Below are positions 3,372 through 24,171 of a DNA stretch of 25,146 nt, piece after piece. This DNA is from Verrucomicrobiota bacterium. GTDB taxonomy: Bacteria > Verrucomicrobiota > Verrucomicrobiia > Limisphaerales > CANJXF01. A model generated the notes under the pieces. That model was not told the origin of the DNA. It made no database searches and saw nothing but the letters and a program-made list of their open reading frames with translations. The stretch spans positions 1 through 25,146 of the forward strand of contig JBBQRQ010000077.1 of the NCBI GenBank assembly GCA_038214755.1. The letters are read 5' to 3'. Positions within the stretch are counted from its first letter, which is position 1. Every line of letters begins with the position of its first letter. Made by a program: the position numbers and the translations under genes.

Positions 3372-3448
3372 GGGGGCGTAGCTCAATTGGTTAGAGCGCT
3401 GCCCTGTCACGGCAGAGGTTACGGGTTCGAGCCCCGCCGCTCCCGCCA
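3372..3448 (+). tRNA. tRNA-Asp(GTC)
   Basis: Cloverleaf with acceptor stem GGGGGCG/CGCTCCC, anticodon arm CTGCC-CTGTCAC-GGCAG, T loop TTCGAGC, discriminator G and encoded CCA. Confidence 0.97.
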
Positions 3449-3750: not shown

Positions 3751-4461
3751 ATGAGCATTCCCGTGTACTTTTTGGCGGATTCACAGTTGCATTACGTCTG
3801 GTCGCGCGCGCCCATCGAGGGACGCTCCATCCTCGTCGTGCTCATGATCTTTTCCATTTTTGCCTGGTCGGTCATGGTGTCGAAAGCTCTGCAAATGCGG
3901 CGCGCGAAAAAACTCAACCAATTTTTCGACGCGGAATTTCGTTCGCAAAAAAATGTTCTGGGAATTTTTGATCGGCGAGTCCAGGTGGAGGGCTGTCCGC
4001 TTTTTTCCGTCTATCAAGCCGGCAGCCTCGAACTGGACGCGCGCTTGAAAGACCGGATGACCGACGGGCGAAAAAAATTTATCTCGCTCAAAGGAATGGA
4101 GCACGTCAAACGCACTCTGGAAAACGCGGTCGCGCGCGAGTCGTTGAAATTGGAATCAGGTTTAATTTTGCTGGCCATCGCGGTCAGCGGCGCGCCGTTT
4201 CTCGGACTGCTGGGAACGGTTTGGGGCGTGATGATCACTTTTGCGGACGTCGGTCAGACGCGGCAGGCGGATTTGGTAACGATGGCGCCCGGCGTCTCGA
4301 CCGCGCTGGTCACGACGGTGGCCGGGCTGCTCGTCGCGATTCCGTCGATGTTTGGCTACAATTGGCTCGTGCACAACTTGCGCGTGCGCACGGTGGAGCT
4401 GGATAATTTCGCGCAGGAACTTGTTTCCAAAATGGAGACGGAATATTTGCAGGACGAATAA
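3751..4461 (+). CDS. tolQ: TolQ (MotA/TolQ/ExbB proton channel)
   Basis: APFLGLLGTVWGVM and APGVSTALVTTVAGLLVAIP motifs; first gene of a tol-pal cluster. Confidence 0.92.
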   Translation: MSIPVYFLADSQLHYVWSRAPIEGRSILVVLMIFSIFAWSVMVSKALQMRRAKKLNQFFDAEFRSQKNVLGIFDRRVQVEGCPLFSVYQAGSLELDARLKDRMTDGRKKFISLKGMEHVKRTLENAVARESLKLESGLILLAIAVSGAPFLGLLGTVWGVMITFADVGQTRQADLVTMAPGVSTALVTTVAGLLVAIPSMFGYNWLVHNLRVRTVELDNFAQELVSKMETEYLQDE

Positions 4462-4463
4462 TT

Positions 4464-4874
4464 ATGCGCCGTTTTTCCCAACGCAATTCGCTGGTGACGT
4501 TGAATGAAATCAACATCACGCCGCTGCTGGATTTGGCGTTTGTGCTGTTGCTTATTTTCATCATCACGCGCCCGATGCTGGAGCAATCGATAGGTTTGAA
4601 ATTGCCGGGGGGCGGAGAAAAGCCAGGAAAGGTCGAAGCGAAAAATCGGCTGTTGGTGGAAATTTCTCCGCAAGGAATTTATATGTTGAACAAAAAACAA
4701 ATGACAATCGGTCCGCTGCTCGAACAATTGAGAAGTCTGGCACGCGCAAATCCAAATGCGTTTGTCTCCATTCGCACGGATGAAAAAGCGCCGAGTAAAT
4801 ATTTTTATGCGGTGATGGATGGTTGTCAGAAACGCGACATCACTCGTTTTGAATTGAAGACATCGCCGGAGTAA
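4464..4874 (+). CDS. tolR: TolR/ExbD biopolymer transport protein
   Basis: EINITPLLDLAFVLLLIFII motif. Confidence 0.9.
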   Translation: MRRFSQRNSLVTLNEINITPLLDLAFVLLLIFIITRPMLEQSIGLKLPGGGEKPGKVEAKNRLLVEISPQGIYMLNKKQMTIGPLLEQLRSLARANPNAFVSIRTDEKAPSKYFYAVMDGCQKRDITRFELKTSPE

Positions 4875-4875
4875 A

Positions 4876-5787
4876 ATGAATCGTTATCAAAAAAAATGTC
4901 TGGTGGCTTCACTGCTGATGCATGGACTTTTACTCCTTGTGTTGGTGGTCGGCACTGCATTTTTTAATTCAGAAAAAAAACTGATTGAGTCGCCGAATCT
5001 CATCACCGTGTTGAATGGCGTCGTCACTGATGGAAAGTCGGGCGGAGCAAATCCAACTCCTGCCAGTGCGACGCCTGCTGTAGCGGCTCCCACGCCCAAA
5101 CCAGAACCGATTAAACCCGCGCCGCCGCAACCTGAGCCTGAGAAGCAAAGAGTGGTTGAACCGCCGAAACCGAAACCAACTGAACGGAAAGAAACTGTAT
5201 CTGAACTTCCCGTCCCAAAAAAACCGAAGAAGACTTTGCCGGAACCGATTTCTAAAACGGCGGCGACGGTTTCTCCCAAACCTCCGCGCCCAACTCGGAA
5301 CATCGACATCAGCAAACCAACGGTTCGCGACAACAAGGAAAAATTAGCAGCGGCAGAGGTGGCCCGACTCGCTGCTGACCAACGTGTGCGCAATGAGCGG
5401 CTGGCCGCTTTCAATGGCATACGAAAAAATATTGAAAACAATTTGTCGCCGGGCACGACGATTGAAATGCCCTCCGGCGCAGGCGGGGGACAAGCGGAAA
5501 TCAATTACGGCGATTTGGTTCTCAGCAAATACGACGCGGCGTGGTTCGCGCCGAGTGAAGTGGATGACAGCGAAGCAATCGTCAAAGCCCGCGTCGTCAT
5601 TGCGCGGAATGGCAGGGTAATTTCCAGCGCCATTATCAAAGCTTCAGGAAATGTGACGCTGGATAGCTCCGTGCGGCGCGCGCTGGAATTGCGCGACATC
5701 GGACAACCTTTTCCGGCGGGCAGCACGGATTCTCAACGCACTTACATCATCAATTTTAATTTAAAAACCAAACGAGGACTTGGATGA
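4876..5787 (+). CDS. tolA: TolA/TonB-family energy transducer
   Basis: N-terminal TM helix with SxxxH (SLLMH), Pro/Lys-rich linker, and a C-terminal TonB_C-like domain (SGNVTLDSSVRRAL); lies between tolR and tolB. Confidence 0.8.
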   Translation: MNRYQKKCLVASLLMHGLLLLVLVVGTAFFNSEKKLIESPNLITVLNGVVTDGKSGGANPTPASATPAVAAPTPKPEPIKPAPPQPEPEKQRVVEPPKPKPTERKETVSELPVPKKPKKTLPEPISKTAATVSPKPPRPTRNIDISKPTVRDNKEKLAAAEVARLAADQRVRNERLAAFNGIRKNIENNLSPGTTIEMPSGAGGGQAEINYGDLVLSKYDAAWFAPSEVDDSEAIVKARVVIARNGRVISSAIIKASGNVTLDSSVRRALELRDIGQPFPAGSTDSQRTYIINFNLKTKRGLG

Positions 5788-6950
5788 AAAAAATATTTTC
5801 GATTGCAATCTTTTTAACCATTTGCGCGGCGACCTTTCTGCCAAGAACTTCGGCGCAAAACGGCGAATTAAATCTTAACCGTTGGCCCGACCCAAAAAAA
5901 GTGATTCCCATTTCGATGACCGGATTTTCAGGAACGGCCCAGGAAGTTTTGCGATTTGATTTGGAGGTTCACGGTTTCGAATTCGTCGGAGCCGATGCGG
6001 CGCAATTTATTTTGACGGGCAACAACAACGGACAAGTCGAGGGGCGTCTCACGGATAAAAATAAATCGTCGCTCCTCTCGCGCGCTTATACCGGCGGCAA
6101 CACGCGCTCACAAGCGCACGCGCTGGCCAACGATGTTATTCTTGCCATCACGCAGCGCAAGGGAGTCACGCAAGGCAAAATCGCATTTCGGGTGGGCGAA
6201 GGGAAAACGAGCGAGATTTACGTGGCGGATTACGACGGCGCGAATGCGGTTGCCGTGACGCACGACCGCTCGTTGGTCAGCGCGCCCTGCTGGACGCCGG
6301 GCGAGCGCAGACTTTTTTACGTCTCCTACAAATCCGGTTTCCCGGACATTCTTTCCCACGACCTCTCAACCGGCGCGCGAAAAAAGTTCGCCAGTTACGG
6401 CGGGTCGAATTTCAGCCCGGCGGTTTCTCCCGATGGCCGGAGCGTCGCGATGATTTTGAGCAAATCAGGGAATGCCGAAGTTTACGTTGCCAACATCGAC
6501 GGCTCGAATTTGAAACAGCTCACCAAATCGCGGGACAGCAAATCCTCACCGTGCTGGTCGCCGAGTGGTCGCGAAATTTGTTTCGTTTCGATGAGCGGTC
6601 GAGCCGGTTTGTATAAAATCAATTCCAATGGCGGCGAGCCGCGACGTCTTCAGACCGCGGGTGTTGGCGGAAACTTGACCGAGCCGGACTGGTCGCCAGA
6701 CGGCAAAACAATTGTGTTCACTGCGCAGATGGGCAACTTCAACATTTGCACGGTTCCGGCCGAAGGAGGCAACGCAGTGGCACTGACGGACGGGGAAGAT
6801 CCGGCTTGGGGGGCAAACTCCCGGACGGTCATTTTCACTCGTAGAAAAAGTGGTGGACGCGTCTTGTCTTTGCTTGACGCGCCTACCAGGCATGTCAAAG
6901 ATGTTTCTCGAATTTCGGGGAGCAGTTCTCAGCCATGCTGGGCAAAATAA
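5784..6950 (+). CDS. tolB: TolB beta-propeller protein
   Basis: Signal peptide; PD40-type repeats SPAVSPDG, SPCWSPSG, EPDWSPDG; IYVADYDG. Confidence 0.9.
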   Translation: MKKIFSIAIFLTICAATFLPRTSAQNGELNLNRWPDPKKVIPISMTGFSGTAQEVLRFDLEVHGFEFVGADAAQFILTGNNNGQVEGRLTDKNKSSLLSRAYTGGNTRSQAHALANDVILAITQRKGVTQGKIAFRVGEGKTSEIYVADYDGANAVAVTHDRSLVSAPCWTPGERRLFYVSYKSGFPDILSHDLSTGARKKFASYGGSNFSPAVSPDGRSVAMILSKSGNAEVYVANIDGSNLKQLTKSRDSKSSPCWSPSGREICFVSMSGRAGLYKINSNGGEPRRLQTAGVGGNLTEPDWSPDGKTIVFTAQMGNFNICTVPAEGGNAVALTDGEDPAWGANSRTVIFTRRKSGGRVLSLLDAPTRHVKDVSRISGSSSQPCWAK

Positions 6951-6973
6951 CAACCTTCCTAAACAAAAATAAA

Positions 6974-7582
6974 ATGAAACGCACGGCACTTTTTAATCTA
7001 TTGATCGTCGGTCTGGTTTTCGTCTTCGGAGTCACGGCTTGCAAAAAGAGACCGGTGAACACCACGGATATTCCTCGTTTGAGACCTATAGTTGGAGACA
7101 ATGGGAGGGGCGACCTTCCTGAAGGTGGGAAATTACCCGGAAATAATTCTGAAAATAATCCTGTGGTCAATCGTGACGGGACTGGGATTGAACAGGCAAA
7201 TCGCGGATCAATCGGAGACCGCCCGCAAAATCGCTCAATGTTTGCAGCCGACACCGTCTATTTCGATCTCGACAGCGCCGCCGTCAAAGCGGGGGAAAAA
7301 TCAAAACTCGAATCGGTCGCCAGCGGTTTCAAATCACAAGCCAACGGAGATTTGCTGATCGAAGGTCATTGCGATGAGCGCGGCACGGAAGGTTACAATC
7401 TCACGCTGGGCGACAAACGCGCCAACTCGCTCCGCGAATATCTGGTGAACCTCGGAGTCTCGGCTGAGCGCATTCACACGATCAGTTACGGCGAATCCCG
7501 CCCTGCGTCCGAAGGGCACGATGAATCCTCCTGGTCAAAAAATCGCCGCGGCGAATTCATCTTTGTCGAACCGGCCAAATAA
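6974..7582 (+). CDS. pal: Peptidoglycan-associated lipoprotein Pal (OmpA C-terminal domain)
   Basis: Lipobox VTAC; IEGHCDERGTEGYNLTLGDKRA, ISYGESRP and NRR motifs. Start placed at ATG 6974. Confidence 0.93.
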   Translation: MKRTALFNLLIVGLVFVFGVTACKKRPVNTTDIPRLRPIVGDNGRGDLPEGGKLPGNNSENNPVVNRDGTGIEQANRGSIGDRPQNRSMFAADTVYFDLDSAAVKAGEKSKLESVASGFKSQANGDLLIEGHCDERGTEGYNLTLGDKRANSLREYLVNLGVSAERIHTISYGESRPASEGHDESSWSKNRRGEFIFVEPAK

Positions 7583-17355: not shown

Positions 17356-18315
17356 ATGCGCTTAAACCAATTACTGATGGTCACAACCTTGTTGCTCATC
17401 TCTCCCGCCGTTTTGCGCAGCGCCGAGCGCGCATCGCTCGCGGAGCGGCTGGGTTACAAACCGACCGACAAACTTCTCATCGTCAATGGTGACGATGCGG
17501 GTATGTGTCATTCTGCCAATCTTGCGACGATTGAATCTTTGGAAAAAGGGCAGATGCGCAGTGCGACCATCATGGTGCCTTGTCCGTGGTTTCCTGAAAT
17601 CGCCGCTTACGCCGAGAAGCATCCGGAAAAAGATTTCGGAATTCACCTCTGCCATACTTCAGAGTGGGGCAAGTATCGGTGGGGACCCGTCGCCGCGAAG
17701 GAACAGGTTCCGGGGTTGGTGGATCAAAACGGCTATCTCTGGAAGAGCGTGGAAGAGGTTTATCTTCACGCAACGCCGGAGCAAGCGCTGATCGAAGGAC
17801 GCGCCCAGATCAAACGCGCCTTGGCTGCGGGAGTGGACGTTACCCACTTCGATTCGCACATGGGCACGATGCAATATCATCCCGATTACATGAAGTCGTA
17901 TTTGCAACTGGCCGTGGAATTCGATCTGCCGGTTCGGATGGCATCGCAGGAAACGCTGACACGGCTCGGCCATCCTGAAATTCGCGGCCAGTTCGCCGCC
18001 AAAGGAATTCTTTCTCCCGACCATTTTGTTTTCGATGAATTGAAGAATGAAAAAAAAGATGTGAAAAATTTCTGGCTCGAAGTGGTGAAAAATATCAAGC
18101 CGGGCGTGACGGAGCTTTACATCCATGCGGGATTGCCGAATGACGAATTGAAAGCCATTACCGCCTCATGGTCCACGCGCTCAAAACAATTCGAGGTCTT
18201 CACTCACGACGACGAGATGAAACAACTGATCGCCGACCAGAAAATTATCCTGATTGGCTATCGGCCCTTGCGCGACCTTCAACATAAAGAACGGCAGGAG
18301 AGCAAAGGCCGTTGA
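17356..18315 (+). CDS. ChbG/YdjC-family carbohydrate deacetylase, exported
   Basis: LIVNGDDAGMCHSAN, GIHL, THFDSHMG and TELYIH motifs; signal peptide from ATG 17356. Confidence 0.87.
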   Translation: MRLNQLLMVTTLLLISPAVLRSAERASLAERLGYKPTDKLLIVNGDDAGMCHSANLATIESLEKGQMRSATIMVPCPWFPEIAAYAEKHPEKDFGIHLCHTSEWGKYRWGPVAAKEQVPGLVDQNGYLWKSVEEVYLHATPEQALIEGRAQIKRALAAGVDVTHFDSHMGTMQYHPDYMKSYLQLAVEFDLPVRMASQETLTRLGHPEIRGQFAAKGILSPDHFVFDELKNEKKDVKNFWLEVVKNIKPGVTELYIHAGLPNDELKAITASWSTRSKQFEVFTHDDEMKQLIADQKIILIGYRPLRDLQHKERQESKGR

Positions 18316-18427
18316 GGTCAACGCCAGAAAGTTCCTCTAGTCATTTTTTGGGATTTGCCTATCTTCCCGTCTCTGATTTTCAATGGAGCTTCGTCGCGCG
18401 AAGCTCTGTCGAGTTGCGACTTCTATG

Positions 18428-21400
18428 ATGACCTGTTCTCAAATTCGCCAGTCGTTCCTGGACTTCTTCAAATCGAAGCAACACACCATCGTGCCGTCTT
18501 CGAGCCTCATGCCGGATTCGCCGAATCTGCTGTTTACGAACGCGGGCATGAATCAGTTCGTCCCGATTTTTCTGGGGCAAACGAAATGTCCTTACCACCC
18601 GCCGCGCGCCGCTGACACGCAGAAATGCATTCGCGCCGGTGGCAAACACAACGACCTCGACGACGTCGGTCTCGACACGTATCACCACACGTTTTTCGAG
18701 ATGCTCGGCAACTGGAGTTTTGGCGATTATTTCAAAAAAGAAGCGATTGAATGGGCTTGGCAATTGGTGATCGACGTTTGGCGATTCCCTCCTAACCGAC
18801 TTTACGCCACCGTTTATTCGCCTGATAAAACGAAGTGCGATCCCAGCGAATTCGATCAGGAAGCCTACAATTTTTGGGCGGAGAAATTTATTGCCGCCGG
18901 CCTCGATCCGAAAACCCACATCGTCAACGGCAACAAGAAAGATAATTTCTGGATGATGGGCGAAACCGGCCCGTGCGGTCCCTGCTCGGAACTGCACGTC
19001 GATCTCACGCCGAACGGTGACACCAAAGGCTCGCTCGTCAATAAAGGCGACGCGCGTTGCATCGAGATTTGGAATCTGGTTTTCATCCAGTTCAACGCGA
19101 ATCCGGACGGAACCTTTTCCCCATTGCCTGCGAAGCATGTCGATACCGGAATGGGTTTCGAGCGCGTGACGAGCATCATTCAAGGAACGAAAAATTTTTC
19201 TGATTTCGCCAACGCCAAGATTTCAAATTACGAGACCGACATCTTCCGCCCGATTTTCGACAAGCTCGAAAAAATGAGCGGCAAGAAATATGGTCGCACG
19301 CTGCCTAGTGGGGCAGGCTTCCAGCCTGCCTCTGCGGGCATCTTGCCCGCGTTGGAAACTGGGGCTGGAAGCCCCATTGGCAGGCAGGATGCCTGCCCCA
19401 CTAGTTCGGAACAAATCCAACTCGATATCGCATTCCGCGTCATCGCTGACCACATCCGCACGTTGAGTTTTGCGATTGCCGACGGCATTCAACCCGGCAA
19501 CACCGACCGCAATTACGTCCTGCGCCGCATTCTGCGCCGCGCCGTTCGCTACGGACGCACGCTCGGTTTTCACGAACCCTTTTTCTACAAACTCGTTGAC
19601 GTTCTAGCCGACACAATGGGCGATGTGTTTCCAGAAATCCGCGCACGACGAAATCAGGTTGAAGAAGTGATTCAGCGTGAGGAAGAGGCGTTTAACAAGA
19701 CGTTGGATGCTGGCATCAAAATGTTTAACGGTTTTTTGAATGCTCGGCAAAAAGCCTTGGAAAAAGTTCGACCCGTCGAATCTCTCGTTTCTGACACTCG
19801 GCTCAAAATTGATGAATATCTGTCATCTATTCACAAGGCCAAATTTCCTGTGACAAAAAAAACACTGGATCAACTTAACAAAGCTCTCATGGAATTTGGC
19901 TTGGCTGTCACTGGCGATTTAGTAAGAGCTCTAGGCATCAGCAACCTGCAAGATGCTCAACGTGTTCAAATCAGACAGTTGCCAGAACTTCAGGCTCACT
20001 ATTCCGTCAACGAGGTTTGCGCCGCGATAAATGATCTGCTCGAAAGCGGGAGGGCCGACCAAGACGCACTTCAAATGTTGAACGCCATCTCTTCGAGAGC
20101 CGCAGATTCTTTGAGCGCGATCCAAGTCATTCGCAAAGGACAAAATGTGTTTCCAGGAAGTGCGGCGTTCCTGCTCTATGACACCTACGGTTTCCCGCTG
20201 GACCTCACCGAATTGATGGCGCGCGAACGCGGTTTGACCGTGGACAAAGAAGGTTTTGAAAAATTGATGGAGGAACAGCGCGCCCGTGCTCGCGCCGCGC
20301 AGAAGAAAGAAGTCATTTCGCTTTCGGAAATTGAAAGCACCACGCCGACGAAATTTGTCGGCTTCGATAATCTCGCGGTTGCCGCCAAAGTTTTGGAAGT
20401 GGTCAAGGTGAAGGACAAGACCGCCGTCATTCTCGATACTTCGAGCGCTTACGCCGAAATGGGCGGGCAACTCGGCGACACCGGCGAGTTGAGTCACGGT
20501 GGCCAGATGTGGCGCGTCGTCAACACGCAAAAGAGCGGCAACACCTGGCTGCATTTTGTCGCGGAAGATGCTTCGACGTTGTTGCCCGGAACCGAAGTGC
20601 AATTCGCGGTGGATGCGCCGCGCCGCAATGCGATTCAACGTCATCACACCGTCACGCATTTGTTGCATTGGGCGTTGCACGAGGTGGCCAGCCGCGACGC
20701 TTCGCAAAAAGGTTCTTACGTCGGGCCGGAAAAGTTGACGTTCGATTTCAACAGCGCGCCGCTCACGCCCGAACAACTCAGCGACATCGAAAAACTCGTC
20801 AACGAACGCATCCTCGAAAACGCGGGCGTGTCGTGGACGGAAGTTCCCCATGCCGACGTGAAATCGCGCAAGGATGTGATGCAATTTTTCGGCGACAAAT
20901 ACGGCGACACCGTGCGCGTCGTGCAAATCGGCGGACGGGCAGGGGAGTTGAACGGTTATTCGATGGAACTCTGCGGCGGCACGCACACGCGCGCGACCGG
21001 CGAAATCGGTTTGTTCCGCATCGTCGGCGAAAGCGCGATTGCCGCAGGCGTTCGCAGAATTGAAGCTGTTGCCGGACTCGAAGCGTATCGCAAAGCGACG
21101 GACGAAGTGGCGCTCATCAAATCGCTTGCCGGTAAAGTGAATTCGCCGATTCACGAGTTGGACAAAAAAATCGAAGCGGTGCTCGCGCATCAGAAGGAGT
21201 TGGAGAAGACGCTCAAGCAGTCCATTGCGCGCAGCGCGTCGCAGACCGCGAGCTGGTTGCTGGGCCGGGTGCAGACCGTCAACGGCGTCCCGCTCATCAC
21301 GCAAAATTTCCCCGACGCCGACGCGGAGTTCCTTCAGGCCGTGGTGGACGCACTCAAGAGCCGTTTCAAAGGCGTCATTGTTCTCGGTGGTGCAGCAAAC

Positions 21401-21592
21401 GGCGCAGTCGCATTAGTCGCATCCGTCTCAGCCGATTTCACCGCGAAAGTTCAAGCCGGAAAAATCATCCAAACCATCGCGCCCATCGTCGGCGGCAAAG
21501 GCGGCGGCAAACCGGACCACGCGCGCGGCGGCGGACGAGAGGCAAGCAAGTTGGACGAGGCATTGGCGAAGGCGAAAAGCTTGCTCGGTTAA
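18428..21592 (+). CDS. alaS: Alanine--tRNA ligase of about 1054 aa with two insertions
   Basis: LLFTNAGMNQF, HHTFFEMLGNWSFGDYFK, GPCGPCSE, DTGMGFER, LYDTYGFP, editing motifs HTVTH and ELCGGTH, and a C-Ala GGKGGG. Start is ATG 18425 or 18428. Confidence 0.97.
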   Translation: MTCSQIRQSFLDFFKSKQHTIVPSSSLMPDSPNLLFTNAGMNQFVPIFLGQTKCPYHPPRAADTQKCIRAGGKHNDLDDVGLDTYHHTFFEMLGNWSFGDYFKKEAIEWAWQLVIDVWRFPPNRLYATVYSPDKTKCDPSEFDQEAYNFWAEKFIAAGLDPKTHIVNGNKKDNFWMMGETGPCGPCSELHVDLTPNGDTKGSLVNKGDARCIEIWNLVFIQFNANPDGTFSPLPAKHVDTGMGFERVTSIIQGTKNFSDFANAKISNYETDIFRPIFDKLEKMSGKKYGRTLPSGAGFQPASAGILPALETGAGSPIGRQDACPTSSEQIQLDIAFRVIADHIRTLSFAIADGIQPGNTDRNYVLRRILRRAVRYGRTLGFHEPFFYKLVDVLADTMGDVFPEIRARRNQVEEVIQREEEAFNKTLDAGIKMFNGFLNARQKALEKVRPVESLVSDTRLKIDEYLSSIHKAKFPVTKKTLDQLNKALMEFGLAVTGDLVRALGISNLQDAQRVQIRQLPELQAHYSVNEVCAAINDLLESGRADQDALQMLNAISSRAADSLSAIQVIRKGQNVFPGSAAFLLYDTYGFPLDLTELMARERGLTVDKEGFEKLMEEQRARARAAQKKEVISLSEIESTTPTKFVGFDNLAVAAKVLEVVKVKDKTAVILDTSSAYAEMGGQLGDTGELSHGGQMWRVVNTQKSGNTWLHFVAEDASTLLPGTEVQFAVDAPRRNAIQRHHTVTHLLHWALHEVASRDASQKGSYVGPEKLTFDFNSAPLTPEQLSDIEKLVNERILENAGVSWTEVPHADVKSRKDVMQFFGDKYGDTVRVVQIGGRAGELNGYSMELCGGTHTRATGEIGLFRIVGESAIAAGVRRIEAVAGLEAYRKATDEVALIKSLAGKVNSPIHELDKKIEAVLAHQKELEKTLKQSIARSASQTASWLLGRVQTVNGVPLITQNFPDADAEFLQAVVDALKSRFKGVIVLGGAANGAVALVASVSADFTAKVQAGKIIQTIAPIVGGKGGGKPDHARGGGREASKLDEALAKAKSLLG
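19305..19404. repeat. Four-hairpin palindromic element inserted in frame in alaS
   Basis: Perfect 14-bp terminal inverted repeat CTAGTGGGGCAGGC/GCCTGCCCCACTAG and four 7-8 bp hairpins. Confidence 0.9.
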
Positions 21593-21615
21593 GTTTTTCA
21601 GCGGAGAATTTATTC

Positions 21616-21819
21616 ATGCTGCGGGACGAACAAGCCAGTCCAGAACAGATTGAGGTATTGCGAAGAATGACACCTCAGCAGCGATGGCGCGCGGCCCACC
21701 GGCTTTACTGGACGTGTCGCCGACATAAAACTGCGTTTCTGCAAAGCCAGCATCCCGACTGGCCCGAAGAGCAAATTCAAAACGAAGTGAAGCGCATTTT
21801 CTCCCATGCCCGAACCTGA
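21616..21819 (+). CDS. Small helical protein, putative MenA1 (Rv0078B)-like antitoxin
   Basis: 67 aa, MTPQQRWRAAHRLY...LQSQHPDWPEEQIQNEV; overlaps the downstream nucleotidyltransferase by 14 nt. Confidence 0.65.
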   Translation: MLRDEQASPEQIEVLRRMTPQQRWRAAHRLYWTCRRHKTAFLQSQHPDWPEEQIQNEVKRIFSHART

Positions 21820-22363
21820 CCTGATCGAATTATTTGTTGGGCCGCTGGATAGATTGCAGCTACGTTATTTAGTCAGCGGCAGTGTGGCGGCCATGCTTTA
21901 TGGAGAGCCACGCGTCACCCATGATGTTGACGTAGTGGTTTTTCTTCGGTCGGAAGACGTCGCCCGGCTTCCAGAAAGTTATCCTCCTCCGGAATTTTAT
22001 CTTCCACCGCCGGAAATAATTTTGCAGGAAATTTCCAGCGATCGCGGCCAATTCAACATTATCCACGCTGACAGCGGTCTAAAAGCTGATCTCTACCTGG
22101 CCAAACACGATGAGTTTCACGCGTGGGCCTTCCGAAATGTCAGACGGTATTCAATCGGTGAGACGACGATTCGGCTGGCTCCACCCGAATACGTCATCGT
22201 CCGCAAGCTCGAATACTTTCGCGAAGGCGGTTCGGAAAAACATTTGCGCGACATTCGTTCCATGCTGGCAATTTCTGGAGAACAAATTGATCGCGCCGTT
22301 TTGCGGGAATGGGTGGATCGACAAGACGTAGTGGAGCAGTGGAAATTGCTCAACGTCTCATGA
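21806..22363 (+). CDS. Pol-beta-superfamily nucleotidyltransferase, putative MenT1/AbiEii-like toxin
   Basis: YLVSGSVAAMLYGEPRVTHDVDVVV (GS...R.T.DxD), a third acidic residue in KADLY, and the C-terminal helical motif IVRKL...KHLRDI. Confidence 0.8.
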   Translation: MPEPDLIELFVGPLDRLQLRYLVSGSVAAMLYGEPRVTHDVDVVVFLRSEDVARLPESYPPPEFYLPPPEIILQEISSDRGQFNIIHADSGLKADLYLAKHDEFHAWAFRNVRRYSIGETTIRLAPPEYVIVRKLEYFREGGSEKHLRDIRSMLAISGEQIDRAVLREWVDRQDVVEQWKLLNVS

Positions 22364-22372
22364 TTTCTTTCC

Positions 22373-22497
22373 TGGACTGCGGCGGCATGACGACGCTTTT
22401 CCTGCACGTTGCCCGATGGAGAAAGTGCAGAAATGAAGAACCTTCCCGGTTTTCCAGAGCGCAGCCCAAGCGGAGAGGAATGTCCCCGCCGTCCAAA
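22373..22497. repeat. Degenerate TGGACTGCG...GTCCAA inverted-repeat element
   Basis: TGGACTGCGGCGGCATGACGACGCTTT ... AAGCGGAGAGGAATGTCCCCGCCGTCCAAA; same end style as 3074-3156. Confidence 0.55.
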
Positions 22498-22597: not shown

Positions 22598-22816
22598 ATG
22601 AGAAAAATAATTGTTTGTTTCGCGTTGGCCGCTGTCGCCGCTCTGCCGGTGTTCGCGGGTGAGAAATCAGATAAAAACAAAACCGCTTGCGCTGACAAGG
22701 CCAAGGCAGAATGCCAGGGCAAAACCGCCTGTTGTGCGGCAAAAAGTGCGTGCAGCAAGACGCCCTCGAAGCAGGCATTGCTCAGCCCGAAGGCCGCTGA
22801 GACCGTCAAGAATTAA
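22598..22816 (+). CDS. Small secreted Cys/Lys/Ala-rich protein (72 aa)
   Basis: Signal peptide MRKIIVCFALAAVAALPVFA; the mature part has 5 Cys including CC; a terminator-like hairpin follows. Confidence 0.75.
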   Translation: MRKIIVCFALAAVAALPVFAGEKSDKNKTACADKAKAECQGKTACCAAKSACSKTPSKQALLSPKAAETVKN

Positions 22817-22836
22817 CTCCCCGATTTTCCACCAAG

Positions 22837-22867
22837 TCCCTCGAGTTCCGGCTCCGGGGATTTTTTA
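22837..22867 (+). terminator. Possible intrinsic terminator
   Basis: Imperfect stem TCCC..GAG/CTC..GGGA followed by a run of Ts. Confidence 0.45.
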
Positions 22868-22955
22868 TGCCGCGGTGCGATCAAAACTTGGATCTCGCCG
22901 CGACAGTTTTTTTCGGATGCTTGACCGTTTCCTCGTCGTTCGGCACAAATGAGCC

Positions 22956-23336
22956 GTGGAAAGAGTCAGATCCAAAACGGATTGGAGAAATCAAACCGCC
23001 GCCCTTCTGATCGCCGTCGCTGCCGGTGTTTTGCTCTATTTTTTTCCGCCGGGCGATTATCCTTTTTATCCGCGCTGCCTTTTTCATTCGCTCACCGGCC
23101 TGGATTGTCCCGGCTGCGGTTCGTTGCGGGCGCTGCACCAATTGCTTCACGGAAATGTCAAAGCCGCTTTTGCATTAAATCCTTTGTTGGTTTTTCTGTT
23201 GCCTGCCCTGCTAATTTTTTCCATGCGTCCGGTTCGAGGCCAACGGAATTTTCGCGAAAACAAAATATGGCTTTGGGTCGGATGCTGCGGTTTGATTCTT
23301 TTCGCAGTTGCCAGAAATTTGCCCGCGTTGTTTTAG
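22956..23336 (+). CDS. DUF2752-like membrane protein
   Basis: CLFHSLTGLDCPGCGSLRALHQLLHG...A...NPL motif. Confidence 0.85.
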   Translation: MERVRSKTDWRNQTAALLIAVAAGVLLYFFPPGDYPFYPRCLFHSLTGLDCPGCGSLRALHQLLHGNVKAAFALNPLLVFLLPALLIFSMRPVRGQRNFRENKIWLWVGCCGLILFAVARNLPALF

Positions 23337-23355
23337 CGAAAAAAAAATAAAAATT

Positions 23356-23781
23356 ATGTTTAAAATTATTGGAACAGACGGGAAACAATACGGGCCAATT
23401 TCCGCCGAGCAGCTCCGGCAATGGCTCGCCGAAGGACGCGCCAACGCCAACACGCTCGTGCTCGCCGAAGGAAGCGCTGACTGGAAACCGCTCGCGACGT
23501 TTCCGGAGTTCATGCGCCCGAGTCCGTTTCATGCGCCGCCGATTCTGGCGGGAGTCGAGGAGCGCAAATCCAAACTCGCCGCTGGTTTACTCGGGATTTT
23601 TTTGGGCGGCTTCGGCGTGCATCGATTTTATCTCGGCTATACCACGATTGGCGTTGTCCAAATTCTGGTGACGTTTTTGACCTGCGGCGTCGGGCACCTC
23701 TGGGGTTTCATCGAAGGAATTTTAATCATCGCCGGGACAACCATTACCACCGACGCAGAGGGCCGGCCGTTGAAAGAGTAG
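23356..23781 (+). CDS. GYF_2 (DUF4339) plus TM2-domain membrane protein
   Basis: GKQYGPIS..QLRQW...W.PL..FPEF at the N-terminus; KSKLAAGLLGIFLGGFGVHRFYLG TM2 motif. Start placed at ATG 23356. Confidence 0.87.
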   Translation: MFKIIGTDGKQYGPISAEQLRQWLAEGRANANTLVLAEGSADWKPLATFPEFMRPSPFHAPPILAGVEERKSKLAAGLLGIFLGGFGVHRFYLGYTTIGVVQILVTFLTCGVGHLWGFIEGILIIAGTTITTDAEGRPLKE

Positions 23782-23787
23782 CGTCCC

Positions 23788-24171
23788 ATGGCCCGCTTCA
23801 TCCATCCGCCGCGAAATCGTTCCGAAGCGTGGCGATGCGCCCTGGTCAACCAACTCGCCTTTCCCGGTCTTGGCACAATTTTCGCCGCGCAAAAAATTGG
23901 TTATGCGCAAGCGGCGTTGATGCTGGCCGGTTTTTTCGTTTGGACCGGTTACATGTGTTGGGTGATTTACCACCAGATAAAAGTGTTGTTCGACATGGGC
24001 GCCAGCACGCAGGAGGTCAACGATGCGAAATTCGCGCACGGCTGGGTTGGCGTTGTGGGGTTAGGGCTTTGTCTGGTGGCTTGGAGTTGGTCGTTGTTTT
24101 CCAGTATTCAAATCGTGAAAGCTGCTCCGGAAAATGCGCTGCCTCCCAGTGTGCCCCCAAAAATTTCTTGA
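23788..24171 (+). CDS. Hypothetical membrane protein
   Basis: 6 nt after the previous stop; NQLAFPGLG motif and hydrophobic segments. Confidence 0.7.
   Translation: MARFIHPPRNRSEAWRCALVNQLAFPGLGTIFAAQKIGYAQAALMLAGFFVWTGYMCWVIYHQIKVLFDMGASTQEVNDAKFAHGWVGVVGLGLCLVAWSWSLFSSIQIVKAAPENALPPSVPPKIS

Follow-up and report, generated by a model that had tools for sequence, protein, structure and literature searches.

The stretch of DNA analysed here (the window) comprises 25,146 nucleotides of contig JBBQRQ010000077.1 from a Verrucomicrobiota bacterium, and it carries alaS, the gene for alanyl-tRNA synthetase (AlaRS), with an in-frame segment of low GC content shortly ahead of the helix that carries the G3:U70-reading Asp. 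The alaS open reading frame (ORF) extends over 18383..21592 on the + strand (1069 amino acids); its true start is probably the ATG at 18425 or 18428. All three domains tRNA-synt_2c (PF01411), tRNA_SAD (PF07973) and DHHA1 (PF02272) are present within this one ORF, and close homologs of the protein carry the names Verrucomicrobiota and Pedosphaera sp. A profile search of the 97%-complete genome recovered a single PF01411 gene, the alaS of the window; as the only alaS found, it presumably encodes an enzyme that aminoacylates with the insert in place.

The segment under study occupies 19727..20149 on the + strand and encodes 141 residues in frame and without a stop codon. It splits the PF01411 match into two parts, one covering profile positions 1-378 and ending at 19753, the other covering positions 376-550 and starting at 20129; at the same place, structure alignment counts 139 residues in the window protein and 10 in human AlaRS (4xem). 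The distance between the Asn and Asp residues that read the G3:U70 base pair of tRNA-Ala is 227 residues in the window AlaRS, as compared with 97 in Escherichia coli (N303/D400) and 99 in the human enzyme (N317/D416), with the residue positions of the latter two enzymes taken from PMC6055181. Therefore, the net insertion amounts to about 130 amino acids.

Both recognition residues are intact. The Asn equivalent to E. coli N303 and human N317 (19499..19501, + strand; placed by the 4xem alignment) corresponds to the invariant N359 of our 58-sequence alignment A3, and the Asp of the YDTYGFP motif equivalent to D400 and D416 (20180..20182, + strand), located 11 codons downstream of the insert, corresponds to the equally invariant D586. 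According to PMC6055181, the Asn faces the major-groove side of G3:U70 while the Asp makes a minor-groove contact to G3; what the preliminary description of this locus had said about the Asp is thus correct. In comparison with canonical bacterial AlaRS, the window enzyme has the same domains and intact motifs, and it is distinguished by the approximately 130 residues that have been added after the long helix of Mid2 and ahead of the helix with the Asp. A minority of the alleles of relatives (L017, L022, L026, L050, L097, L104, L123 and others) have YDEQGFP in place of YDTYGFP and retain the Asp. The allele L163 (G005) reads YDQEGFP, likewise with the Asp retained, within a divergent tract of about 100 nt, which suggests that the recognition motif itself has been swapped by recombination.

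The GC content of the segment is 0.461 (0.42 in its first half and 0.50 in its second) and that of the remaining alaS gene 0.559, close to the 43-45% and roughly 58% that had been counted by hand. At third codon positions (GC3), 63 of 141 codons of the segment (0.447) end in G or C, versus 615 of 914 (0.673) in the rest of the gene (Fisher p=4e-7), and among 914 long ORFs of the genome with any internal low-GC3 segment, the one in alaS ranks second.

An assembly chimera, an intein or an intron is an extremely improbable explanation for these data. The segment-containing stretch is present in one sequencing run only (X1), and it is known from DNA alone. In run X1, a separately assembled contig of 1989 nt, sequenced to a depth of 28.7, covers 19511-21499 including both junctions with 0 differences; this contig is not independent because X1 may be the source sample. 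The runs X2, X3 and X5 have almost no coverage over the insert and no contig across it, and they speak neither for nor against the segment. This contig, the open frame and the well over a hundred other alleles with in-frame inserts at the same site argue against an artefact. Inteins typically start with C, S or A and end in HN followed by C, S or T; direct reading of the segment finds no such end motifs, and there is no match to Hint or any other Pfam intein family, which speaks against an intein, the hallmarks of which had already been noted as absent in the preliminary description. A group I or II intron or another known RNA is made equally improbable by the lack of any Rfam match at E<=0.1 within 18300-22400.

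Predicted fold and relationships of the insert

The inserted residues had been described as helical in appearance, and two lines of evidence agree with this. The sequence is amphipathic (hydrophobic moment z=2.7, a value equalled in 3 of 200 shuffles) and nearly neutral (18 Lys and Arg versus 16 Asp and Glu). Furthermore, an AlphaFold model of the N-terminal 642 residues, computed with an alignment of 35 of 43 long-insert and 22 of 36 short-loop relatives, assigns the insert a predicted local distance difference test score (pLDDT) of 74-94. In this model, a 59-residue helix runs from the anchor helix of AlaRS into the insert and is followed by three further long helices and then by the normal Asp-bearing helix. 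The insert is accordingly predicted to form an up-down four-helix bundle that extends the preceding AlaRS helix at the tip of Mid2, and the model suggests a fold shared with the long helical inserts of two families found in relatives (c0 and c1, see below). The best fold matches outside AlaRS are generic four-helix bundles (talin rod, FAT domains and the de novo protein ABLE; Z 10-12) with the same predicted topology. Unrelated bundles reach equal scores, all of them below the level that the tool sets for helical folds (about 13), and neither ancestry nor function follows from them.

Searches by sequence gave a uniformly negative picture within their respective scopes. No homolog of the insert was detected elsewhere in its own genome, among 540 candidates from AlaRS-length proteins, or in viral and genome contigs, where the search reaches close relatives only. 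Among 1.84 billion representative sequences, two matches were rejected as low-complexity repeat proteins, leaving no real homolog; three matches in 400 genomes of the class (E 0.004-0.009), two of them containing stop codons, were rejected as well, and none is credible. The insert matches no family in Pfam, NCBIfam, PADLOC or PHROGs, libraries that hold described families only; a Pfam ADIP match (E 0.022) was dismissed as coiled-coil noise. The ESM Atlas gave no usable match, which shows neither absence nor novelty, a Foldseek search with the single-sequence model was uninformative, and a viral fold library returned two viral AlaRS proteins as its only matches. Compared with 20 profiles of other insert families, the window insert scored above shuffled sequences in no case (for the best profile, 13 of 300 shuffles scored as high), and an hhalign comparison with family c1 aligned only the last 20 columns of the flank. 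The ESM Atlas matches of a c1-family insert are eukaryotic, dynein-tail-like helical clusters, which we regard as a lead only.

The insert is also not a cassette of the repetitive extragenic palindromic (REP) elements and their REP-associated tyrosine transposases (RAYTs), nor an insertion sequence: it has no HUH motif, no match to Y1_Tnp, no flanking REPs, no terminal repeats and no genomic copies. No repeats bounding the insert were found; a 15-nt near-repeat occurs at 19623 and 20145, but as its first copy is situated some 100 nt upstream of the insert, it does not represent a target duplication.

A hypervariable slot in alaS and the exchange of its contents

The comparison with AlaS proteins of relatives, which had been put forward as a check, revealed unrelated sequences at the site. 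Linkers were pooled from genome loci, metagenome loci and database proteins (10 loci, and then another 3 loci and 3 proteins, were left unparsed) and classed as short (<44 amino acids), medium (44-94), long (at least 95) or RAYT. Among the 318 distinct linkers there are 81 short, 114 medium, 103 long and 20 RAYT. Clustering of the 217 inserts other than RAYTs gave 116 clusters, 74 of which are singletons, the window insert being one of these. Inserts are over-represented in this pool because the ranking of matches was by their similarity to the window. In relatives sampled mostly one per family, a linker of at least 44 residues is present in 11 of 30 parsed alleles (5 long non-transposase, 2 RAYT and 4 medium) and a short loop in the other 19. 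The loop measures 20-30 residues in many relatives, while others hold unrelated domains of 45-165 residues or a RAYT transposase; Y1_Tnp was recognized by Pfam in both of the RAYT linkers that were scanned. A direct comparison is provided by a congener (P0006/G001), the flanks of which are 98% (95 residues upstream) and 97% (120 residues downstream) identical to those of the window, and which carries an unrelated linker of 60 amino acids between them; two further congeners possess a 65-residue linker and a 228-residue RAYT, respectively. The segment is therefore neither conserved nor vertically inherited across the clade, and its GC content is not ordinary. As the comparison of alleles indicates, the window insert is one allele of a hypervariable alaS slot.

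Most of the long inserts are amphipathic (z>2 in 71 of 85), and few carry a net positive charge (17 of 104). Selection was assessed in 32 non-independent pairs of related inserts that are at least 45% identical and belong to families other than that of the window insert: the ratio of nonsynonymous to synonymous substitution rates (dN/dS) is 0.05-0.35 in 17 pairs, and the remaining 15 are synonymously saturated, with a proportion of nonsynonymous differences (pN) of 0.15-0.37. By these values, related inserts in sister families are under purifying selection. Two insert families (L084:2626-2922 and L091:1996-2319, with L269 and L251) resemble HRDC domains, which bind nucleic acids, with Pfam E-values of 1.1e-4 and 0.014 that lie below the cut-off.

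The contents of the slot appear to travel independently of the gene around them. On a backbone tree of the 239 of 318 alleles that have both backbone pieces, no insert family forms a clade. Of the 97 alleles that belong to a family, 2 have a nearest backbone neighbour from their own family, against 1.2 in shuffles, and of 90 close backbone pairs, 81 differ in insert class; these results are subject to a sampling bias discussed below. The alleles L213 and L261 share an insert of 95% DNA identity together with 180 nt upstream of it at 92-100%, with farther flanks at 67-75%; these identities mark a tract that was transferred recently. The ten codons that directly precede the linker have a GC3 of 0.62 in long-insert alleles and of 0.75 in short-loop alleles. 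In the window itself, a possible upstream recombination arm lies at 19565..19726 (+ strand), where 8 window-specific substitutions occur in 150 nt versus 40 in 1497 nt elsewhere (p=0.07). Clusters of window-specific substitutions relative to three congeners are also seen at 18757-18800 and 20683-20724, an indication that alaS is mosaic outside the insert too.

The insert families that were tested are met inside alaS only: family c0 was found there in 2 of 401 genomes, family c1 has no free-standing member among 1499 candidates of 83-275 amino acids, and the 217 inserts and 20 profiles have no match at other places in the window genome. Because of the incongruence with the backbone tree, the transfer tract, the lack of bounding repeats and the absence of free-standing c0 and c1 sequences, homologous recombination between alaS alleles is the best-supported route, and we consider it very probable that the insert is a cassette swapped in this way. 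An alaS fragment from another strain or species would replace the loop by recombining within the conserved flanks, with arms of about 60-200 nt; neither a transposase nor a repeat nor splicing would be needed. The earlier view of the segment as a possibly exchangeable domain is thereby supported.

The same description had also considered the segment to be horizontally acquired. This holds if a swap among alleles of alaS is meant. The data do not demonstrate a foreign donor of low GC content, since no free-standing copy of the window insert or of the two other families was found and since insert families stay low in GC up to synonymous saturation. The recent and direct capture of a fragment of a phage, plasmid or polyvalent-protein gene by this particular alaS is quite improbable in our estimate. 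It would account for the difference in GC3 (0.45 versus 0.67), each family must have had some first origin, and other inserts in housekeeping genes of this genome are recognized polyvalent-protein domains (families described in PMC5512222). Against it stand the lack of any donor in the collections searched and the base composition of the slot as a whole: GC3 is below that of the flanks in 77 of 78 long inserts (mean 0.48 versus 0.78), this also applies to the saturated families, and insert GC3 follows host GC3 only weakly (rho 0.33, p=0.004). Low GC is therefore a standing feature of the slot and no proof of a foreign donor. DNA that rarely finds a homologous partner is exposed to AT-biased mutation, and the composition of the inserts fits either such a bias in rarely recombining DNA or an unseen low-GC reservoir.

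The window hence holds a genuine domain of orphan sequence, situated in a slot of an essential enzyme that very probably changes its contents by recombination and that resembles known hypervariable cassettes. Recombination-exchanged hypervariable regions include the central domain of the flagellin FliC, the target-recognition domains of type I restriction HsdS subunits and mosaic penA/pbp2x genes; with the alaS slot they share unrelated middles of low GC content enclosed by conserved flanks, transfer from one allele to another, and families that are each under purifying selection. Unlike these, the alaS slot resides in an essential cytoplasmic translation enzyme and not in a surface antigen, a DNA-specificity module or a drug target, its short-loop allele is common, and a selecting agent is only hypothesized. 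In PMC10036535 and PMC8583063, AlaRS is stated never to have gained a domain. A literature search at the level of titles and abstracts, which extended to few subscription papers and to no supplements, returned no description of the alaS slot, and the absence of one is unproven. On the data presented here, well over a hundred unrelated domains would have been acquired at a single AlaRS loop within one order of bacteria, the members of which trade them.

Other insertions in the genome and the maintenance of the slot

The alaS slot has a counterpart in lysS. The low-GC segment that ranks first in this genome is a helical lysS linker of 127 amino acids (L199, G000:C126:4835-6802; codons ~355-480). 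In 23 parsed relatives the lysS linker has 25-26 residues in 15 and is longer in 8, four of which have 110-138; a congener in addition to these 23 has a linker of 129. The longer inserts, of 54-138 residues, sit at the same hairpin and are unrelated. A comparison of six lysS inserts with the alaS inserts gave no significant cross-match (best E 0.011), and the co-occurrence of alaS and lysS inserts over 21 genomes is not significant (p=0.16). In the gene for threonyl-tRNA synthetase (ThrRS; L185, G000:C42:18394-20415), codons ~276-335 form a helical-looking stretch of lower GC content.

alaS itself contains a second in-frame insertion site at 19305..19404 (+ strand), a REP-like hairpin with 33-nt arms that is repeated across the genome (59 matches with both strands counted; z -7.5). 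The loop derived from it is disordered in the alignment-based model (pLDDT <50), and in four relatives (L006, L010, L012 and L017) this site holds whole RAYT domains. Intragenic REPs have been described in Opitutus terrae (PMC3733652). The alaS gene thus resembles carriers of REP/RAYT (Y1_Tnp, PF01797) and REP/RPE elements in two ways, by the RAYTs that occupy the slot loop in 20 of 318 linkers and by this in-frame hairpin, whereas the window insert itself has no REP flanks, HUH motif, Y1_Tnp match or genomic copy.

Further in-frame stretches were found in the same genome at L182, L183, L186, L188 and L189 (G000 contigs C27, C56, C29, C88 and C121): LeuRS contains PBECR3, ValRS contains LPD3 twice, MetH has a zeta-toxin-like stretch, PriA a Y1 transposase (Y1_Tnp) and MutS PBECR1. 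The polyvalent-protein domains to which the PBECR, LPD3 and zeta-toxin types belong have been described in PMC5512222; the part of this paper that we drew on does not mention fusions to synthetases. The lineage evidently builds conflict-type domains into housekeeping enzymes, given these stretches in LeuRS, ValRS, MutS and MetH; unlike them, the window insert matches no such family.

How the diversity of the slot is maintained is a separate question. Once translated and folded, the insert would form a four-helix bundle that projects from the tip loop of the Mid2 tRNA-recognition subdomain; it would not read G3:U70 but alter the protein surface of the enzyme, and it might work as a steric block, a decoy or a binder. 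Frequency-dependent selection by an intracellular antagonist or partner, such as a synthetase-binding phage, plasmid or toxin protein, would keep many alleles in circulation. We put forward this conflict-driven diversification tentatively, with prospects a little short of even, and hold its combination with the recombination cassette with equal reserve.

Alternatively, the slot may be a permissive landing loop in a lineage that gathers mobile domains in its housekeeping genes, the inserts of which spread by the same recombination without conferring a benefit, drift or hitch-hike, and are selected only to fold harmlessly. The RAYTs and REP remnants within alaS, the stretches in other housekeeping enzymes, the intragenic REPs of O. 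terrae (PMC3733652) and the persistence of short loops in 19 of 30 relatives are all in line with such tolerated cargo. However, nothing that could drive the spread of the helical inserts, be it a nuclease, a repeat or a free-standing reservoir, was found, and one recombination with a short allele could remove a costly insert. More than one hundred unrelated folded domains of similar size, dN/dS values well below 1 and an exchange uncoupled from the backbone resemble balancing selection more than decay. We therefore regard a purely neutral slot as possible and rather unlikely.

Several observations weigh against conflict-driven maintenance of an exchanged, folded cassette and should be kept in mind. 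The antagonist or partner of the insert is purely hypothetical, translation of the segment is deduced from the DNA only, and many relatives live with a short loop; nor does any PADLOC, PHROGs or NCBIfam match point to a defence or phage function. The tree test is biased towards difference because database proteins were collapsed at 90% identity and identical linkers merged, and the recombination arm of the window itself is weak (p=0.07). As to the fold, the other inserts in the model alignment are only 4-13% identical to that of the window, so that the prediction may lean on a shared architecture of unproven homology, and the single-sequence model reaches a pLDDT of 47 with different helix limits. 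The dN/dS values come from other families and from non-independent pairs, the window insert having no relative for comparison, and purifying selection could simply mean that an insert has to fold in a way that does no damage to the essential enzyme around it.

Each outcome would have its own consequences. If the slot is driven by selection, it points to an arms race on the translation machinery that was not previously known. If it is neutral, it shows that essential genes can become reservoirs of orphan folded domains, it identifies a loop of AlaRS that accepts insertions of 130-280 residues, and it calls for caution with alaS and lysS as phylogenetic markers, since they would be mosaic in these taxa.

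The tRNA side and the neighbouring genes

Directly downstream of alaS, a candidate toxin-antitoxin pair is arranged in the order of an Rv0078B-type small gene followed by an AbiEii/DUF1814-type nucleotidyltransferase. The first gene (21616..21819, + strand; 67 amino acids) encodes a candidate Rv0078B-related, MenA1-like antitoxin (PF18993, E 4.9e-5, below the curated cut-off), and the second (21806..22363, + strand) encodes an AbiEii/DUF2204-type nucleotidyltransferase that is a MenT1-like toxin candidate by family and structure matches: one homolog passes the AbiEii cut-off, and the match to the MenT1 structure is weak (E 0.046). Among the best 29 homologs in the order, the small gene is present at all 29 loci, and 9 of them also follow alaS. 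A candidate member of a family of toxins that modify tRNA ends would thus sit beside a synthetase. MenT1 is reported to extend the 3' ends of tRNAs and in this way to block aminoacylation (PMC10435456).

This neighbourhood bears on a role of the insert at the tRNA, in which the bundle would shield the acceptor stem or tune the binding of tRNA-Ala beside G3:U70, for instance as a defence against acceptor-stem nucleases or nucleotidyltransferases. Such a role is suggested by the distance of 11 codons from the insert to the G3-contacting Asp, by the MenAT1-like pair here and at the homologous loci together with the mode of action of MenT1 (PMC10435456), and by the two HRDC-like insert families, the matches of which (E 1.1e-4 and 0.014) lie below the cut-off. 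The long inserts are, however, neutral to acidic for the most part, no residue is common to the insert families, and the MenAT1-like pair shows no significant association with the length of the insert, being present with 12 of 109 long and 3 of 47 short alleles (p=0.56). In addition, the helix order in the model suggests a bundle that would point outward along the anchor helix, a placement deduced from secondary structure. A slot of this type also exists in lysS, at an unrelated position, and is therefore not specific to G3:U70. We consider a tRNA-side role improbable, and a shield specific for G3:U70, the first of the functions contemplated in the preliminary description, is unlikely; this notion has been weakened by inserts that are not basic, by a slot that also accepts short loops and transposases, and by the similar slot of lysS.

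In a broader version of the conflict-driven reading, which is speculative and in our opinion rather unlikely, polymorphic and recombination-swapped surface domains of aminoacyl-tRNA synthetases would constitute a cytoplasmic module of strain identity and conflict. Each allele would block, bait or recognize a protein of phage, plasmid or toxin type that is directed against translation, and the expression of the insert would be guaranteed because it is built into an essential enzyme. The helical arms of AlaRS, LysRS and possibly ThrRS would then be parallel cases, with the MenAT1-like pair located in the same conflict hot spot.

Ordinary features of the window are a tRNA-Asp gene (3372-3448) and a tol-pal-like ExbB/ExbD/TonB/TolB/OmpA operon (3751-7582). 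Several small ORFs are located at 22611-24171, most of them without a Pfam or NCBIfam match and one with GYF_2 and TM2 domains.

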